64,000 nucleotides of DNA from Octopus vulgaris (lineage: Eukaryota), in assembly GCA_951406725.2 (NCBI GenBank), contig OX597817.1:48670001-48734000 (forward strand), in the 5' to 3' direction. How positions within the stretch are numbered: the stretch's first letter is position 1; each line of letters begins with the position of its first letter. Below are positions 12,025 to 52,330 of this stretch, in pieces. A model generated the notes under the pieces. That model had not been told where the DNA came from and made no database searches. It was given only the letters and a program-made list of their open reading frames with translations. Both the position numbers and the translations under genes were made by a program.

Positions 12025-12845
12025 GGTGGCAGGATCGGTAGCACATCCGACAAAATGCTCTGTGGCGTTTCTTCTGAATCTTAATGTTTCGAGTATAAAA
12101 AAGAATTCTACCGAGTTGCCGTTCATCCTTCCGAGGTCGATAAAATAAGTACCAGTTGAGCATTGGGGTGGAAGTAATCGACTAGAACCCTCCCCCGAAC
12201 TTCAGGCTTTGTGCCTATCGTAAGAAGAATTATTATTACTATTGCGAAGGCGGCGAGCTGACAGAAACGTTAGCACGCCGGGCGAAATGCTTAGGGGTAT
12301 TTCGTCTGCCACTACGTTCTGAGTTCAAATTCCGCCGAGGTCGACTTTGCCTTTCATCCTTTCGGGGTCGATTAAATAAGTACCAGTTACGCACTGGGAT
12401 CGATATAATCGACTTAATCCGTTTGTCTGTCGTTGTTTGTCCTCTCAGTGTTTAGTCCCTTGTGGGTAGTAAAGAAATAGGTATTTCGTCTGCCGCTACG
12501 TTCCGACTTCAAATTCCGCCGAGGTCGACTTTGCCTTTCATCCTTTCGGGATTGATTAAATAAGTACCTGTTACGCACTTGGGTCGATTTAATTGACTTA
12601 ATCTCTTTGTCTGTCCTTGTTTGTCCCCTCCATATTTAGCTCCTTGTGGGCAATAAAGAAATAAGAAATGTTAGCATGTTGGGAAAAATGCATATTGTTA
12701 TTTCGCCCGTCTTCACGTTGAGTTCAGATTTCGCCGAGGTCATCTTTGCCTTTCATTCTTTCGAGGTCGATAGAAGAAGTACCAGTCAAGTTTTGGGGTC
12801 GATGTAATCGACTAGCTCCATCTCCTCTACCGATAGTAGAAAGAT
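12025..12845 (+). mobile_element. Cluster of family B SINEs: one old copy, then a head plus tandem bodies from 12247
   Basis: Head AAGGCGGCGAGCTGACAGAAACGTTAGC at ~12247 and repeated Nin/Deu-like domains. Confidence 0.85.
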
Positions 12846-17431: not shown

Positions 17432-17489
<58 letters not shown>

Positions 17490-17644
17490 ATATATATATA
17501 TATACTTATATACATATATATACATATACATATACATATATATACACACATATATATATACATATATATACATACATAAACATATGTACACATATATATA
17601 TATATACATACATATATATACATGCATATATATATACATAGATA

Positions 17645-17680
<36 letters not shown>

Positions 17681-17715
17681 CATATATACATATATATACA
17701 TATATACATATATGT

Positions 17716-17756
<41 letters not shown>

Positions 17757-17970
17757 GCAATAATAATTCTCTAAAAGAGATATAGACAGTAACTGCTCGA
17801 TAACATAAGGGACTAAAGCCATCTGAATATGGCTAGGGACAGGGCAGGGTGGTGGGGGTGTTACTGTTGCATTTAGCCCCAGGCGAACATCGACGTCACC
17901 AGAAAGGCTAGACACCGTCACGGTGTCCTTATCCTGCAAAGGAGGTAATTCTCCGATGAAGCGGAAACCA

Positions 17971-18016
17971 CACACGGACCATGGTTTCAAGGTGTATTGC
18001 CTATCGTCGGCGTGTG
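17971..18016 (-). ncRNA. Type I hammerhead ribozyme (inverted copy)
   Basis: Reverse complement of the 18314-18359 motif. Confidence 0.8.
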
Positions 18017-18313
18017 GTAGGCTTCCGCTTCCTCGACGAATCCTCACTCTAGCCGGTGTCTAGCCTTTCTGGTGACGTCGATGTTCGCCTGGGGCTAAAT
18101 GCAACAGTAACACCCCCACCACCCTGCCCTGTCCCTAGCCATATTCAGATGGCTTTAGTCCCTTATGTTATCGAGCAGTTACTGTCTATATCTCTTTTAG
18201 AGAATTATTATTGCTTTTGAACAGATTTTCGAAATCAGCAAATGTATTTTGCTTGAAAATCTATATATGAATATCCTGCAGAGTGAGGATTCGTCGAGGA
18301 AGCGGAAGCCTAC

Positions 18314-18359
18314 CACACGCCGACGATAGGCAATACACCTTGAAACCATGGTCCGTGTG
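18314..18359 (+). ncRNA. Type I hammerhead ribozyme, U4C core variant; predicted GUC cleavage after 18353
   Basis: CACACG-CCGACGA-U-AGG(CAAUACA)CCU-U-GAAA-CCAUGG-UC-CGUGUG: 6-bp stem I, 3-bp stem II, palindromic stem III ACCAUGGU. Confidence 0.85.
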
Positions 18360-18673
18360 TGGTTTCCGCTTCATCGGGGAATTACCTCCCTTTGCAGGAT
18401 AAGGACACCGTGACGGTGTCTAGCCTTTCTGGTGACGTCGATGTTCGCCTGGGGCTAAATGCAACAGTAACACCCCCACCACCCTGCCCTGTCCCTAGCC
18501 ATATTCAGATGGCTTTAGTCCCTTATGTTATCGAGCAGTTACTGTCTATATCTCTTTTAGAGAATTATTATTGCTTTTGAACAGATTTTCGAAATCAGCA
18601 AATGTATTTTGCTTGAAAATCTATATATGAATATCCTGCAGAGTGAGGATTCGTCGAGGAAGCGGAAGCCTAC

Positions 18674-18719
18674 CACACGCCGACGATAGGCAATACACCT
18701 TGAAACCATGGTCCGTGTG
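18674..18719 (+). ncRNA. Type I hammerhead ribozyme, unit 2; predicted cleavage after 18713
   Basis: Identical to 18314-18359. Confidence 0.85.
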
Positions 18720-19033
18720 TGGTTTCCGCTTCATCGGGGAATTACCTCCCTTTGCAGGATAAGGACACCGTGACGGTGTCTAGCCTTTCTGGTGACGTCG
18801 ATGTTCGCCTGGGGCTAAATGCAACAGTAACACCCCCACCACCCTGCCCTGTCCCTAGCCATATTCAGATGGCTTTAGTCCCTTATGTTATCGAGCAGTT
18901 ACTGTCTATATCTCTTTTAGAGAATTATTATTGCTTTCGAACAGATTTTCGAAATCAGCAAATGTATTTTGCTTGAAAATCTATATATGAATATCCTGCA
19001 GAGTGAGGATTCGTCGAGGAAGCGGAAGCCTAC

Positions 19034-19079
19034 CACACGCCGACGATAGGCAATACACCTTGAAACCATGGTCCGTGTG
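19034..19079 (+). ncRNA. Type I hammerhead ribozyme, unit 3; predicted cleavage after 19073
   Basis: Identical to 18314-18359. Confidence 0.85.
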
Positions 19080-19262
19080 TGGTTTCCGCTTCATCGGGGA
19101 ATTACCTCCCTTTGCAGGATAAGGACACCGTGACGGTGTCTAGCCTTTCTGGTGACGTCGATGTTCGCCTGGGGCTAAATGCAACAGTAACACCCCCACC
19201 ACCCTGCCCTGTCCCTAGCCATATTCAGATGGCTTTAGTCCCTTATGTTATATATATATATT

Positions 19263-19316
<54 letters not shown>

Positions 19317-25775: not shown

Positions 25776-26497
25776 AGGACAAAGCGATAATCAGAATAGA
25801 GTCCGTTAGAAATTCATCTCTACGATCGTTTCAAAAAACGTTGCCACAATTCGATAATGTATTATCCATTAAATAATCACAAAGGCAATGACCTTTTCGT
25901 CAGGAGAATATTCTCAAAAGTCTCACATTTTTGGTTGTCTATTAAATTCTTTATTGCCTAACCCGGCCCGAATGTGCTTTGCCTCTGCTAACTATAGAAT
26001 GAGGTGTAACCCTCGCCACTGGCATTATCCGTGTGGGAGAGGAGCACGAGTGTCAGACGGCACTCGACTTTTCAAGCTCCCAACTAGTAGATATAATAAT
26101 TTAATATTTACTTAATATTTACTGATTATTAATTGAAACAGCTGTAAGGGAAGATTATTTATTTGCTTTCAATAATAAACAATTATTAACCTACCAATCT
26201 CCCATTTCTTTTTCTTCTTCTTCTTCTTCTTCTTCTTATATATATATATATATAAATATATATATGATACCTTTATAAAAATGGATAATTTAGCTGTTCT
26301 CCGTAGACTGAAAAAAAGAACACTCTTAATCGAGTTTCTCATCTGAGGCGTCTACATCAATTTGATTAATCCCAGAGAAACAAGCAACCAATTTGTTTAT
26401 ATGCTCAATCATATATATGCATTTGTGCATATACATATATGTGTGTGTATATATATATGTGTGTATGTATTGTGTGCGTGCGTGTGTGTGTGTGTAT

Positions 26498-37062: not shown

Positions 37063-38425
<1,363 letters not shown>

Positions 38426-38428
38426 AAG

Positions 38429-38503
<75 letters not shown>

Positions 38504-38504
38504 T

Positions 38505-38800
38505 TATTATATAGAAGGAGCTTCTACAGGACTAGAACTGTTTCATTCAAGAGAAATCTTCAGGAAGCTAGTTAACAAGAATTGTATTGGCATTTATACA
38601 TTTAGGCAGGTTTAAAGGGGTGGTGGTGGTGGGGGACATTTTGGGGGTAGGCATAGCGCAAAAATATCATACTTGGGGGAGTGGTCAAGGAGTCAGTGGT
38701 AAATTAGATAAAAGAATAAATAAAAGAATAAAAAAATATATAGAAGAATTGAGTTTTAGGTAAATAAGGAGATTCTCACTTATACCTATACACATATGTA
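38505..38800 (-). mobile_element. Hammerhead-bearing PLE-type terminal repeat, left arm of an inverted pair
   Basis: Near-identical reverse complement of 42168-42461. Confidence 0.8.
38519..38569 (-). ncRNA. Type I hammerhead ribozyme (canonical core)
   Basis: Reverse complement of 42396-42446. Confidence 0.8.
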
Positions 38801-38944
38801 TATATATATATACACACACACAGACACATATACATACACACATGCATACACACACACACACATATATACATACACACATATATCCATACATAAATCTACA
38901 TATATATATATATATATATACATATATATATGGTTATCAGTAAT

Positions 38945-39604
38945 AATAAAAGGGTGAAATTAATTAATTAGGGATAATTATCAATTACACCAAGTAGATT
39001 TCGGTATGTAAAAGCCCCGTTCGAGGAAAATTTAAGTAATACTAAGTAATTAAGGGTTTAGCAACGAATTGCCTCACCAACACACCGAATTTAGAAATAG
39101 CAGTCAAAGAGATATAGCTATTCCTTCTACTAAAAGGGGATCTCAGTAAAAACACAGCACTTAAAAGGCAAACACAGACAGGTAAGAAAGAAAGAATGAA
39201 ATGACGGCAATCCATCATGCAATTTTAAGTTACCTACGGACGTACGTTTCGAGATCAAGTTTTAGGATATCATAAGAATTAGAAAATTCTACTTTACCCA
39301 GACTTCTTCTCTCATCGGCGCAGGATACTACAATTGTGAATAAAATTGTATATTAAAATTTTATATTACAATTGTATATTAAAATTTGAGATACTAGAAT
39401 GCGTCATCTCAACTCAGTAATTATTTACAAACTATAAAATATATTATAACTGAAATAGCAGCCAAAAAAGTTTTTTAGCCATTTCCACTACTTAAAGAAA
39501 ATTTTCTCTCAGACAATGTTTACTCAAAAAAATAATGGTCCTTTTACATACTGAATACTTGGTGAAATTGATTATTAACTAATTAACTTTACCCTCAATT
39601 GTTG
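38945..39604. mobile_element. AT-rich element with imperfect inverted ends and an internal hammerhead (PLE-associated)
   Basis: The motif ATCAATT(T/A)CACCAAGTA..TC(A/G)GTATGTAAAA occurs inverted at both ends and again at ~49500-49557. Confidence 0.6.
39233..39324 (-). ncRNA. Type I hammerhead, U4C core variant, long stem II
   Basis: CCUGCG-CCGAUGA-GAGA..(53 nt)..UCUC-GAAA-CGUACG-UC-CGUAGG; palindromic stem III ACGUACGU. Confidence 0.75.
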
Positions 39605-42167: not shown

Positions 42168-42530
42168 TACATATGTGTATAGGTATAAGTGAGAATCTCC
42201 TTATTTACCTAAAACTCAATTCTTCTATATATTTTTTTATCCTTTTATTTATTCTTTTATCTAATTTACCACTGACTCCTTGACCACTCCCCCAAGTATG
42301 ATATTTTTGCGCTATGCCTACCCCCAAAACGTCCCCCACCACCACCCCTTTAAACCTGCCTAAATGTATAAATGCCAATACAATTCTTGTTAACAAGCTT
42401 CCTGAAGATTTCTCTTGAATGAAACAGTTCTAGTCCTGTAGAAGCTCCTTCTATATAATAAATTAATTTTACTCTGCTATGTATTGAGTACCTTATTTAC
42501 TGTGGTTAACCCCGAATCAACCCGGGACCT
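42168..42530 (+). mobile_element. Hammerhead-bearing PLE-type terminal repeat, right arm
   Basis: Inverted partner of 38505-38800; extends ~70 bp further 3'. Confidence 0.8.
42396..42446 (+). ncRNA. Type I hammerhead ribozyme; predicted GUA cleavage after 42440
   Basis: AGCUUC-CUGAAGA-UUUC(UCUU)GAAU-GAAA-CAG(UUCUAGUC)CUG-UA-GAAGCU. Confidence 0.8.
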
Positions 42531-47179: not shown

Positions 47180-47710
47180 TTCTTCCTTTCCTTCCCTGAG
47201 CGTCTTATTCATACTCTGCAGGCACCACGTCCTCCGTTATTGTTTTTTCTTGTGTATTTTTGTCGCTTTTTTGGGGATAAATTACATATATATGTATGTA
47301 TGTATGCCTATGTGTCTGTGCACACCTTTAAATGCAATGTATGCTAAAAGGTTTGCAAATATAAGGGAGGCCTCAAAAGACATTTTAAGATCCACAAAGA
47401 TCAGAACTTATCTGCAGTTCTTGGTGGTCCAAATCGGATATGTAATCTATGGAGGTGTCTTTGCCAAACATTGTCTGGTTTAGAAAGCTACATCATATGC
47501 CATGATGGTTCTAAGGTGTAGATACAGGAGGTGGTCAAACTCTGCATAAGGAGTAGACAACCACCATGTATGTATGTATGAATGTATGTATGTATGTATG
47601 TATGCATGTATGTATGTATGTATGTATGCACTCATGCATATATATATGTATGTACGTCTGTACGTATATACATATACATATATATATATGTATATATATA
47701 TATGTGTAAA

Positions 47711-47960
47711 GTATAGAAGCCATCTTAATATGGCTAACCACAAAGGGGAGGGGGTGTTACTGTAGCTTTATAGCCCCAGGAGATCGTCGTCTCCAGCTGG
47801 CTTTAGACACCATTTCAGTGCCCCTGAAGTATTTGCAAAGGGAGGCCATCCCTTTCTCGCAAGCCTGAGTGATACGCACGGACTAGTTTCGAGATTATTG
47901 TCTCTTATCAACGAGCGGTAACCACCAGGTCGCGATGAAAGACAAGGCTGCTTTGCAAAT
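47711..47960 (-). mobile_element. Diverged single partial copy of the retrozyme family, in (TA)n
   Basis: Shares AGCCATCTnAATATGGCT, GGGTGTTACTGTwGC, AGCCCCAGG, AGACACC, GCAAAGGGAGG and CACGGAC..GTTTC in the same order as 17810-18050. Confidence 0.85.
47876..47916 (-). ncRNA. Type I hammerhead, U3-A8 core variant
   Basis: GCUCG-UUGAUAA-GAGA(CAAUAA)UCUC-GAAA-CUAG-UC-CGUGC; palindromic stem III ACUAGU. Confidence 0.8.
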
Positions 47961-51304: not shown

Positions 51305-51729
51305 AAGGCGGCGAGCTGGCAGAATCGATAGCACACCGGGCGAAATGCTTAGCGGTATTTTGTCTGCCGCTACGTCCTGAGTTCAAATTCCGCCGAGGTC
51401 GTCTTTGCCTTTCATCCTTTCGGGGTCGATAAATTAGGTACCAGTTACGCACTAGGGTCGACATAATCGACTTAATCCGTTTGTCTGTCCTTGTTTGACC
51501 TCTCTGTGTTTAGCCCCTTGTGGGTAGAAAAGAAATAGGTATTTCTTCTGCCATTACGTTCTAAGTTCAAATTCCGCCAAGGTCGACTTTGCCTTTCATC
51601 CTTTCGGGGTTGATTAAATAAGTACCAGTTATAGTCTGGGGTCGATATAATCGACTTAATCCGTTTGTCTGTCCTTGTTTGCTTGTTTGTCCTCTCTGTG
51701 TTTAGCCCCTTGTGGGTAGAAAAGAAATA
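51305..51729 (+). mobile_element. SINE family B, head plus two bodies, with TSD
   Basis: GGTTATGGAA flanks both sides (51294-51303 and 51730-51739). Confidence 0.9.
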
Positions 51730-52330
51730 GGTTATGGAAGAAGATATGCAAGGGATATCACATTTCAATGAAAGACAGATCTCGTTTCCTTCAAACAGAG
51801 AACTGAATAAATAAATGTATTATTCTTGGAAAAGAATTACCAAAGCAAATCATCTGATTTGAACATAACACGTTACTCCAATCACACACTTGGTTACAAA
51901 AAGATATAAGTGGGGATTGCTGTTCAAATATTCAATTAAAATTAAAGAATAAAGCCTAACAGAAAATGAAAAAAACCCAAATAAAAACAAAAAAACAGAA
52001 AGACACGCACACGCGCAAGTTTATTTTCATAATATAAGTAAACATAAGTTTCTAATGGATCCGGTGCACATGCCCTATATTTTGGGGGAAGATTGATAGA
52101 AAAAGCTGCAGAATGAGTTCCTTTCCAAACGCATGAGAATCACATTGGTATTAATGAAGCTTAACAAGTAACTTTATTTTCGACTACGACCCCTCCCCCT
52201 CGCCGACTTACATATAAAAATACACTGGAGGGTATGTGTAATTAGTATGTGAATGCTTACGTGCATTTATATGAATATTATTATAAGGATCTATTTGTCT
52301 ATCTATCTATTTATCTATCTATCTATCTGC

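Follow-up and report, generated by a model that had tools for sequence, protein, structure and literature searches.

A young hammerhead repeat of Octopus vulgaris with a C4 core, a palindromic stem III and Penelope-type insertion scars

In the 64,000-nucleotide stretch of the Octopus vulgaris genome analysed here (contig OX597817.1, positions 48,670,001 to 48,734,000; hereafter the window), a 360-bp tandem repeat carries a hammerhead motif in which the core uridine at position 4 is replaced by cytidine (U4C). The repeat family is young and its insertions bear the scars of Penelope elements. We hold with moderate confidence that its ribozyme is working but slowed, cuts mainly as a double hammerhead, and leaves RNA circles that remain mostly uncut and act as templates.

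The motif, its repeat unit and the insertion scars

The motif at 18314..18359 on the forward strand, recognised by reading the sequence, by a descriptor scan and by covariation, is a three-way junction with an open stem I and stems II and III, i.e., a hammerhead of type I. From 5' to 3' it consists of the stem I strand CACACG, the core CCGACGA (18320-18326), U10.1 (18327), stem II (AGG CAAUACA CCU, 18328-18340), U11.1 (18341), GAAA (18342-18345), CCAUGG, UC and the second stem I strand CGUGUG, and the predicted cut follows GUC (18353|18354). The core departs from CUGANGA...GAAA...UH at U4 only, its other positions being canonical, and stem II opens with a U·U pair, as an initial annotation made from the letters alone had stated. 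The identical string was read four times in the window, so that all four copies share the core, again as annotated: three lie on the forward strand, including those at 18674..18719 (predicted cut 18713|18714) and 19034..19079 (predicted cut 19073|19074), and one on the reverse strand (17971..18016), the additional copies being located by descriptor scan. Stem I is extended to 18299..18372, with 12 distal pairs (18299-18310 with 18361-18372), a 3x1 internal loop and 6 proximal pairs. Stem III is the 8-nt palindrome ACCAUGGU at 18345-18352, which is predicted to pair with its own counterpart in the following unit (18705-18712). Folded alone, the palindrome has a minimum free energy of 0, a forced 2-bp hairpin costs +2.2 kcal/mol and the 8-bp duplex reaches -11.2, which bears out the weak hairpin described in the annotation.

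When position 4 was allowed to be either C or U, a type I descriptor returned eight motifs in the window versus one match in 20 shuffled windows. As CCGA is a published natural variant that is functional (PMC3088659, PMC9608096, as described there), we file the motif as a hammerhead variant. Rfam gave no hammerhead family for 18250-18450 even at E<=10, and none for the whole window among the 150 matches listed of 270; profile searches thus overlook the motif, as do strict CUGANGA patterns, for which the annotation had foreseen this.

One monomer from cut site to cut site spans 18354..18713 on the forward strand (q1-q360, numbered from the predicted cut site) and has a predicted rod-like fold. 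The unit is non-coding, with a longest stop-free stretch of 78 codons (six frames, doubled unit). The motif occurs once per unit of the tandem array and copies are dispersed, as in metazoan non-LTR retrozymes with units of 150-450 bp, and the annotation was right to call the hammerhead retrozyme-type. The forward arm (18054..19251) comprises 3.3 tandem units, is 5'-truncated at q61 and ends at a short 3' end, q178; the inverted arm (17756..18050, reverse strand) is 5'-truncated at q287 and ends at a long 3' end, q222. The 44-nt tail q179-q222 (17756..17799, reverse strand) is terminal on the inverted arm only, its internal equivalent being 18532-18575. The insertion is flanked by its target microsatellite, (TA)n-rich on the left (17433..17755) and (TA)n on the right (19252..19316).

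The genome searched comprised 2.8 Gb in about 30 large pieces. Full units on many chromosomes are 98-100% identical (40 scored of 968 candidates). Among 52 insertions, 41 have the short and the long end (~q178 and ~q222), nine have one arm resolved and two are odd; expressed for the 43 with both ends resolved, 41 pair one short with one 44-nt-longer end, and none has two ends alike. At six non-TA sites chosen by eye, target duplications are about 8-12 bp (one longer) and exceed the 4 bp asked of metazoan non-LTR retrozymes. The inverted 5'-truncated arm, the tail at one end and the (TA)n targets are the traits of a Penelope passenger: the Penelope signature is described as partial tandems together with an inverted, truncated arm and, at one end, a tail of 30-40 nt (PMC8557442), and the tail is explained as the stretch between two reverse-transcription starts (PMC11167929). 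None of 204 cut-site flanks had an arm starting at the cut site, so that the DNA carries no trace of a cut template; an apparent pile-up of three such starts vanished on inspection.

Young elements encoding RT and GIY-YIG domains, with scars matching those of the 360-bp insertions, are present in the same genome. We take their cysteine linker to be Neptune-like. The label derives partly from PMC8557442, as far as the linker is described there. One such element (L158-L174, e.g., G000:C16:20835000-20841500) has many intact 781-aa frames, a 39-nt tail and (TA)n targets. A UUGAUAA core was found for this element and its kin in 14 of 25 GIY-YIG loci versus 0 of 200 shuffled regions; in some of them, the youngest copies included, the hammerhead-like motif has a weak stem I and UU at the cut site. 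Its 3' region contains TGACGTC and CCAAT-like repeats, and an AT/AC-rich stretch upstream may hold a further coding region. A second element (L175:1529-4680; L178-L202) also combines RT and GIY-YIG, has a tail of about 36 nt, is identical over 511 bp in all 40 copies scored (1,193 candidates), and carries a hammerhead with CCGAAGA, a U·U opening and the palindrome AGUACU. We detected no end sequence common to the 360-bp family and an autonomous element in 45 GIY-YIG loci (of 6,136 candidates); one shared-end match in L175 proved to be a separate, neighbouring retrozyme relative.

History of the core in the 360-bp family and its neighbours

The annotation had proposed a genomic count of C4 against U4, reasoning that a majority of U4 copies would mark the window copy as dead. 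The exact pattern gave the opposite, 1,204 C4 and 0 U4 matches with identical flanks, and the window copy is therefore no dead mutant. Two U4 matches to a looser pattern were inversion-junction artefacts, and once any stem II was accepted there were 40 U4 matches, 39 from other, older families and one due to the same artefact. A search for U3U4 cores returned 302 matches, and 99 of the 100 listed are indeed U3U4. We do not take the lack of U4 revertants as proof of selection, as only about one is expected by a rough estimate from single-unit variant rates.

A tree was built from 51 insertions; for rooting, 26 representatives were combined with 10 distant relatives. The nearest outgroup, a distant relative of the 360-bp family at 47707..47928 (reverse strand), has a UUGAUAA core and a 4-nt palindrome, and more distant outgroups are canonical. 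The rooted ladder of core and palindrome runs UUGAUAA/CCUAGG, UUGAUGA/CCUAGG, UUGAUGA/CCAUGG, UUGACGA/CCAUGG, CCGACGA/CCAUGG and CCGAUGA; the steps to U·G, to CCAUGG and to CC carry starred support. By this ladder and the outgroup, pair 3-8 passed from U-A through U·G to C-G, and U4C arose within the family on the same branch as U3C. Judged from the tree, U4C is thus recent in the 360-bp family, and its ancestors had U4 with other non-canonical cores. None of the 360-bp subfamilies has a canonical core. The branch to the CC clade carries about six changes (0.028 over 231 columns) and no surviving intermediates, so that the missing canonical core is no proof of counter-selection.

Pair 3-8 is paired (U-A, U·G or C-G) in eight of eight subfamily representatives. 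Across the alignment, 96% of cells are paired, and two-sided changes occur in distal stem I, pair 3-8 and the stem III centre; proximal stem I and stem II are invariant and thus uninformative for covariation. The stem III centre is palindromic in 200 of the 203 copies read from individual loci (175 AU, 25 UA), having changed from UA to AU with the palindrome kept, a swap that only an inter-unit duplex needs. These core and stem III changes are single evolutionary events rather than independent statistics. G5, A6, A9, GAAA and the GUC site are constant across subfamilies while the remaining stretch diverges by 15%. The 360-bp family was also seen, over 18200-18900, in contigs of two other organisms (runs X16 and X18), with CCGAUGA in one contig of the first (D) and UUGAUGA and UUGAUAA in the second (E).

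The annotation had noted the same U4C in an unrelated hammerhead, and CCGAUGA was found there, at 39233..39324 on the reverse strand, in a 589-bp tandem family with a long stem II opening with G-C and the palindrome ACGUACGU. Copies of this family (38930-39600, reverse strand, in the window; L033-L052 and L203-L212) have a 61-nt stem II, and their ends cluster near q201 and q297-312. The family shows a two-armed anatomy like that of the 360-bp family. Its 130 C4 and 25 U4-type matches form two young sister subfamilies, 9.7% apart. The canonical-core sister has spread to 20 insertions, so that a brake on the ribozyme is not obligatory. A third element, at 42396..42446 (forward strand), has the U·U opening reported in the annotation, with a canonical core, CUGAAGA, and a longer stem III. 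Its inverted partner at 38519-38569 (reverse strand) was absent from the annotation. The two arms (38500-38800, reverse strand; 42190-42530, forward strand) lie 3.4 kb apart, one about 70 nt longer, with simple repeats and a copy of the 589-bp family between them. A canonical hammerhead with a 64-nt stem II and the palindrome ACGAUCGU lies at 25817-25907 (reverse strand), and similar long-stem-II motifs occur in L141, L166 and L170. Older related families (L103-L132) have canonical cores and stem II openings of A·A, C·A or U-A; from the copies read, a mismatch at 10.1/11.1 looks common in this genome. A short abundant repeat, probably a SINE, stands in tandem at 1751-2483, 12296-12663, 51354-51732 and 37616-37859 (periods 180, 184, 184 and 126).

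Array length differs between core types. Among the matches listed, 360-bp insertions carry 3.1 ribozyme copies with CC cores (30 insertions) versus 1.6 with UU cores (62 insertions; p=2e-4), a contrast that left out a cut-off array of seven or more and a single U3C4 row, placed two rows under the core label of their neighbours, and used patterns of different lengths. In the 589-bp family the corresponding values, likewise among the matches listed, are 2.1 for C4 (47 insertions) and 1.25 for U4 (20 insertions; p=0.03). These are two contrasts only, confounded with age and enzyme. As UU cores are also non-canonical, a rule that slower cutting gives longer arrays fails for the two contrasts taken together, and an intermediate optimum could fit.

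Templates, folding and a model of cutting

Most 360-bp arrays show a single haplotype across both arms, and arrays reach 14 or more units. Among private variants ('private' being judged among 30 insertions of several hundred), A>G accounts for 7 of 16 that are present in more than one unit versus 2 of 78 in single units (p=3e-5). In L093, L097 and L099, one A>G change is found in every covering unit of both arms; T>C, with 11 of 78, is among the commonest single-unit changes. The shared A>G changes fit A-to-I editing of one RNA that was copied repeatedly, which would imply that a circle, made by cutting and ligation, existed at some stage. Together with the insertion scars they suggest a single template, probably a circle, a reading to be set against local duplication after insertion, variants inherited from source arrays outside the sample, and mosaic arrays. 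Three arrays (L083, at G000:C14:72705800-72711500, L086 and L096) are blockwise haplotype mosaics; one circle cannot explain them, and they suggest template switching or a mixed linear template. Contigs of run X9 ending at 18354 were rejected as RNA ends, because in 31-mer graphs a variant lying 30 bases upstream accounts for them; contigs of 390 bases were rejected as evidence of circles, as a tandem repeat fits equally.

In the free fold of a natural tandem dimer, the inter-unit stem III has a pair probability of 0.62-0.72 and the intra-unit hairpin 0.00; in a one-unit circle the stem III hairpin likewise has 0.00. Thus, by folding and by the palindrome counts, the palindromic, unstable stem III of the 360-bp family is predicted to pair between tandem units. 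To adopt the active fold, two ribozymes in the dimer need +5.8 kcal/mol and one in the circle +9.7; the other three subfamilies for which natural dimers exist give the same picture (+1.7 to +5.7 versus +6.8 to +8.5), all energies excluding the tertiary contact of loop II with stem I, which may stabilise monomers. Stem II is poorly populated in dimer and circle folds alike (0.03-0.05). Dimer dependence of hammerheads with a palindromic stem III has been reviewed (PMC6765202), and for axolotl HHR_Amex2, which has U·U and a 2-bp stem III, the monomer is reported to cut 22% per hour and the dimer far better (PMC7229834). The suggestion in the annotation that cleavage may need two tandem units is borne out by folding as regards the stem III shared in the dimer and absent from the circle; as the axolotl monomer still cuts, 'requires' is too strong, and 'strongly favoured' is the defensible wording. 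The 360-bp hammerhead likely cuts slowly and mainly when neighbouring units pair.

We propose the following course of events. In tandem RNA, each unit would form a rod whose closing helix joins the 3' stem I strand of unit n to the 5' strand of unit n+1, and folding predicts that this closure brings two palindromes together, which then pair over 8 bp as stem III. A one-unit circle could form stem III only as a 2-bp hairpin, and its core is predicted to be tied up in another fold. U4C and U·U would reduce the rate without abolishing cleavage, to judge from published mutants. Monomers may then be ligated by an RtcB-like activity, as shown in vitro for axolotl and mussel, and sometimes be A-to-I edited. 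A Neptune-type Penelope enzyme would nick (TA)n and reverse-transcribe the RNA from the two strands of the DNA, with start points at q178 and q222, and may go round the circle several times. As these starts lie downstream of the cut site, a cut linear RNA would yield only a 178-222-nt copy lacking the ribozyme; only uncut multimers or circles would then transmit the unit, which would select for a braked ribozyme. Single RNA circles would thereby persist until reverse transcription has returned them to the genome.

Each peculiarity of the motif has a precedent of its own: viroid-like RNAs have CCGA, axolotl has U·U, and newt and Penelope elements have a palindromic stem III. In axolotl HHR_Amex2/Rtz_353 (PMC7229834) the hammerhead is also of type I, in a tandem unit of ~350 bp with U·U at the base of stem II; its 2-bp stem III has a tetraloop, the monomer is weak, the dimer efficient, and circles are reported in vivo. 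The 360-bp family, known here from DNA alone, adds U4C to these traits, and the accessible text on Rtz_353 describes no core change, Penelope tail or inverted arms. The same U4C occurs, compatible with function, in circular RNAs such as a PLMVd variant (PMC3088659) and CtaHVd-LR1 (PMC9608096), and is described in zeta viruses and betaviroid-like RNAs (bioRxiv 10.64898/2026.09.16.752053). As reported, these are infectious replicons, often with CCGA in minority variants or in one of two ribozymes; the 360-bp hammerhead is instead of type I, genomic, from an animal and family-wide, with U·U and a dimer-type stem III in addition. Neptune and Poseidon Penelope elements with pLTR hammerheads (PMC4209133; PMC8557442; PMC11167929) share the partial tandems, the inverted 5'-truncated arm and AT-rich targets, and are described with a 30-40-nt tail at one end, a palindromic stem III and, in Schistosoma Cercyon, a covariant U3-A8. 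The 360-bp family differs from these descriptions in having no ORF, a 44-nt tail, longer arrays, and a ribozyme whose stems are full instead of minimal. Animal non-LTR retrozymes (bioRxiv 10.64898/2026.07.22.740005) are likewise tandem non-coding hammerhead repeats for which Penelope machinery was proposed; in that preprint, the proposal is based on co-occurrence and pLTR similarity, with canonical or minimal descriptors and no mollusc sampled. The Penelope link of the 360-bp family consists in its insertion anatomy, and no pLTR homologue was found.

In the literature covered, with subscription papers, figures and two supplements outside its scope, we found no animal retrozyme or Penelope element reported to have U4C as a fixed trait, and no single family in which a 3-8 pair had been followed through a wobble; a figure of PMC4209133 marks 'exceptional core changes', and this figure and the supplements of PMC7229834 and PMC4209133 may already show an animal U4C. 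What appears to be new is the rooted tree along which U3-A8 became U3·G8 and then C3-G8 plus U4C with the palindrome kept.

Competing explanations and the meaning of a tuned ribozyme

Published activities bear on the favoured explanation from both sides. CCGA hammerheads of viroids are described as functional (PMC3088659, PMC9608096), and zeta and betaviroid-like RNAs are described with this variant too (bioRxiv 10.64898/2026.09.16.752053); U4C is reported to lower activity considerably in vitro while permitting viroid infectivity (PMC3088659), and U10.1·U11.1 and U3-A8 are known natural variants (PMC3088659; PMC4209133). In a deep mutational scan of a type III ribozyme, all single and double mutants of the CUGA region are reported to be low except C3G/G8C (PMC9901934), so that U4C with U·U, U3·G8 and U3-A8 could all be near inactive. 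We consider it unlikely that the octopus ribozyme is nearly inactive alone, its fold being an element for Penelope-protein binding or folding, or protein-dependent, with uncut linear multimers and a drifting core. Besides that scan, such a state of affairs would agree with an anole Penelope element, for which cleavage is reported to be protein-assisted and dispensable for insertion in vitro (PMC11167929), with eight of nine Xenopus retrozyme dimers reported uncut in vitro (bioRxiv 2026.07.22.740005), with the lack of arms starting at the cut site, with a non-canonical core in every 360-bp subfamily, and with the mosaic arrays. Nevertheless, a drifting core is hard to reconcile with the constancy of G5, A6, A9, GAAA and GUC amid 15% divergence and with the compensated pair 3-8, and A>G changes filling both arms and arrays of at least 14 units arise more easily from a circle, which needs cutting.

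The recurrence of U4C in three families of this genome, all young and unrelated in sequence, the higher number of copies per insertion in C4 subfamilies in both contrasts, and the considerable loss of activity reported in vitro (PMC3088659) all speak against U4C being nearly neutral. It would then have hitch-hiked with a successful source, the ribozyme cutting adequately, whether monomeric or dimeric, and the circles being protected by an alternative fold or by proteins rather than by the core. We regard this as rather improbable, albeit it accords with a statement that CCGA has no effect on self-cleavage, made in another viroid paper citing PLMVd work (PMC9608096), with the commonness of T>C, by which U4C arises easily, with the confounding of array length with age and enzyme in what are two subfamily pairs, and with the predicted fold of the circle, in which the core is sequestered anyway. 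A chance motif, or a canonical family of which the copy analysed is a dead mutant, can practically be dismissed: Rfam's failure to recognise it is the one point in favour, the C4/U4 counts refute it, and the near-identical copies on many chromosomes, the single descriptor match in 20 shuffles and the covariation speak against it.

Beyond the favoured explanation of a working but slowed ribozyme, we offer a more tentative suggestion. Penelope-dependent RNAs may be selected for an intermediate cutting rate, with U4C as a recurrent tuning: a canonical core would open the circle before reverse transcription had completed a round, U3·G8 would give too few circles, and C4 would give the longest arrays. 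If so, the 360-bp family would preserve the successive stages of this tuning, from U3-A8 through U3·G8 to C3-G8 with U4C, the first change was possibly an A-to-I edit written into DNA, and the 589-bp family and the autonomous Penelope-like element would have reached U4C separately. The genome provides natural matched reagents: the 360-nt unit occurs with six different cores in almost unchanged surroundings, the 589-bp family adds a C4/U4 sister pair, and copy number and array length serve as the genomic read-out for each.

Neither CUGANGA descriptors nor Rfam recognise this genome's youngest ribozymes, among them the UUGAUAA and CCGAAGA hammerheads of the two autonomous Penelope-like families examined. 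Relaxed cores are thus needed when animal hammerheads are counted or an element is said to have none. Cervera and de la Peña left open how the ribozyme is blocked in animal retrozyme circles, noting that the block is not self-pairing (PMC7229834, as worded there). If selection for an intermediate rate is real, it would answer how these circles escape their own ribozyme, and would mean that RNA editing has steered how a catalytic core evolved.
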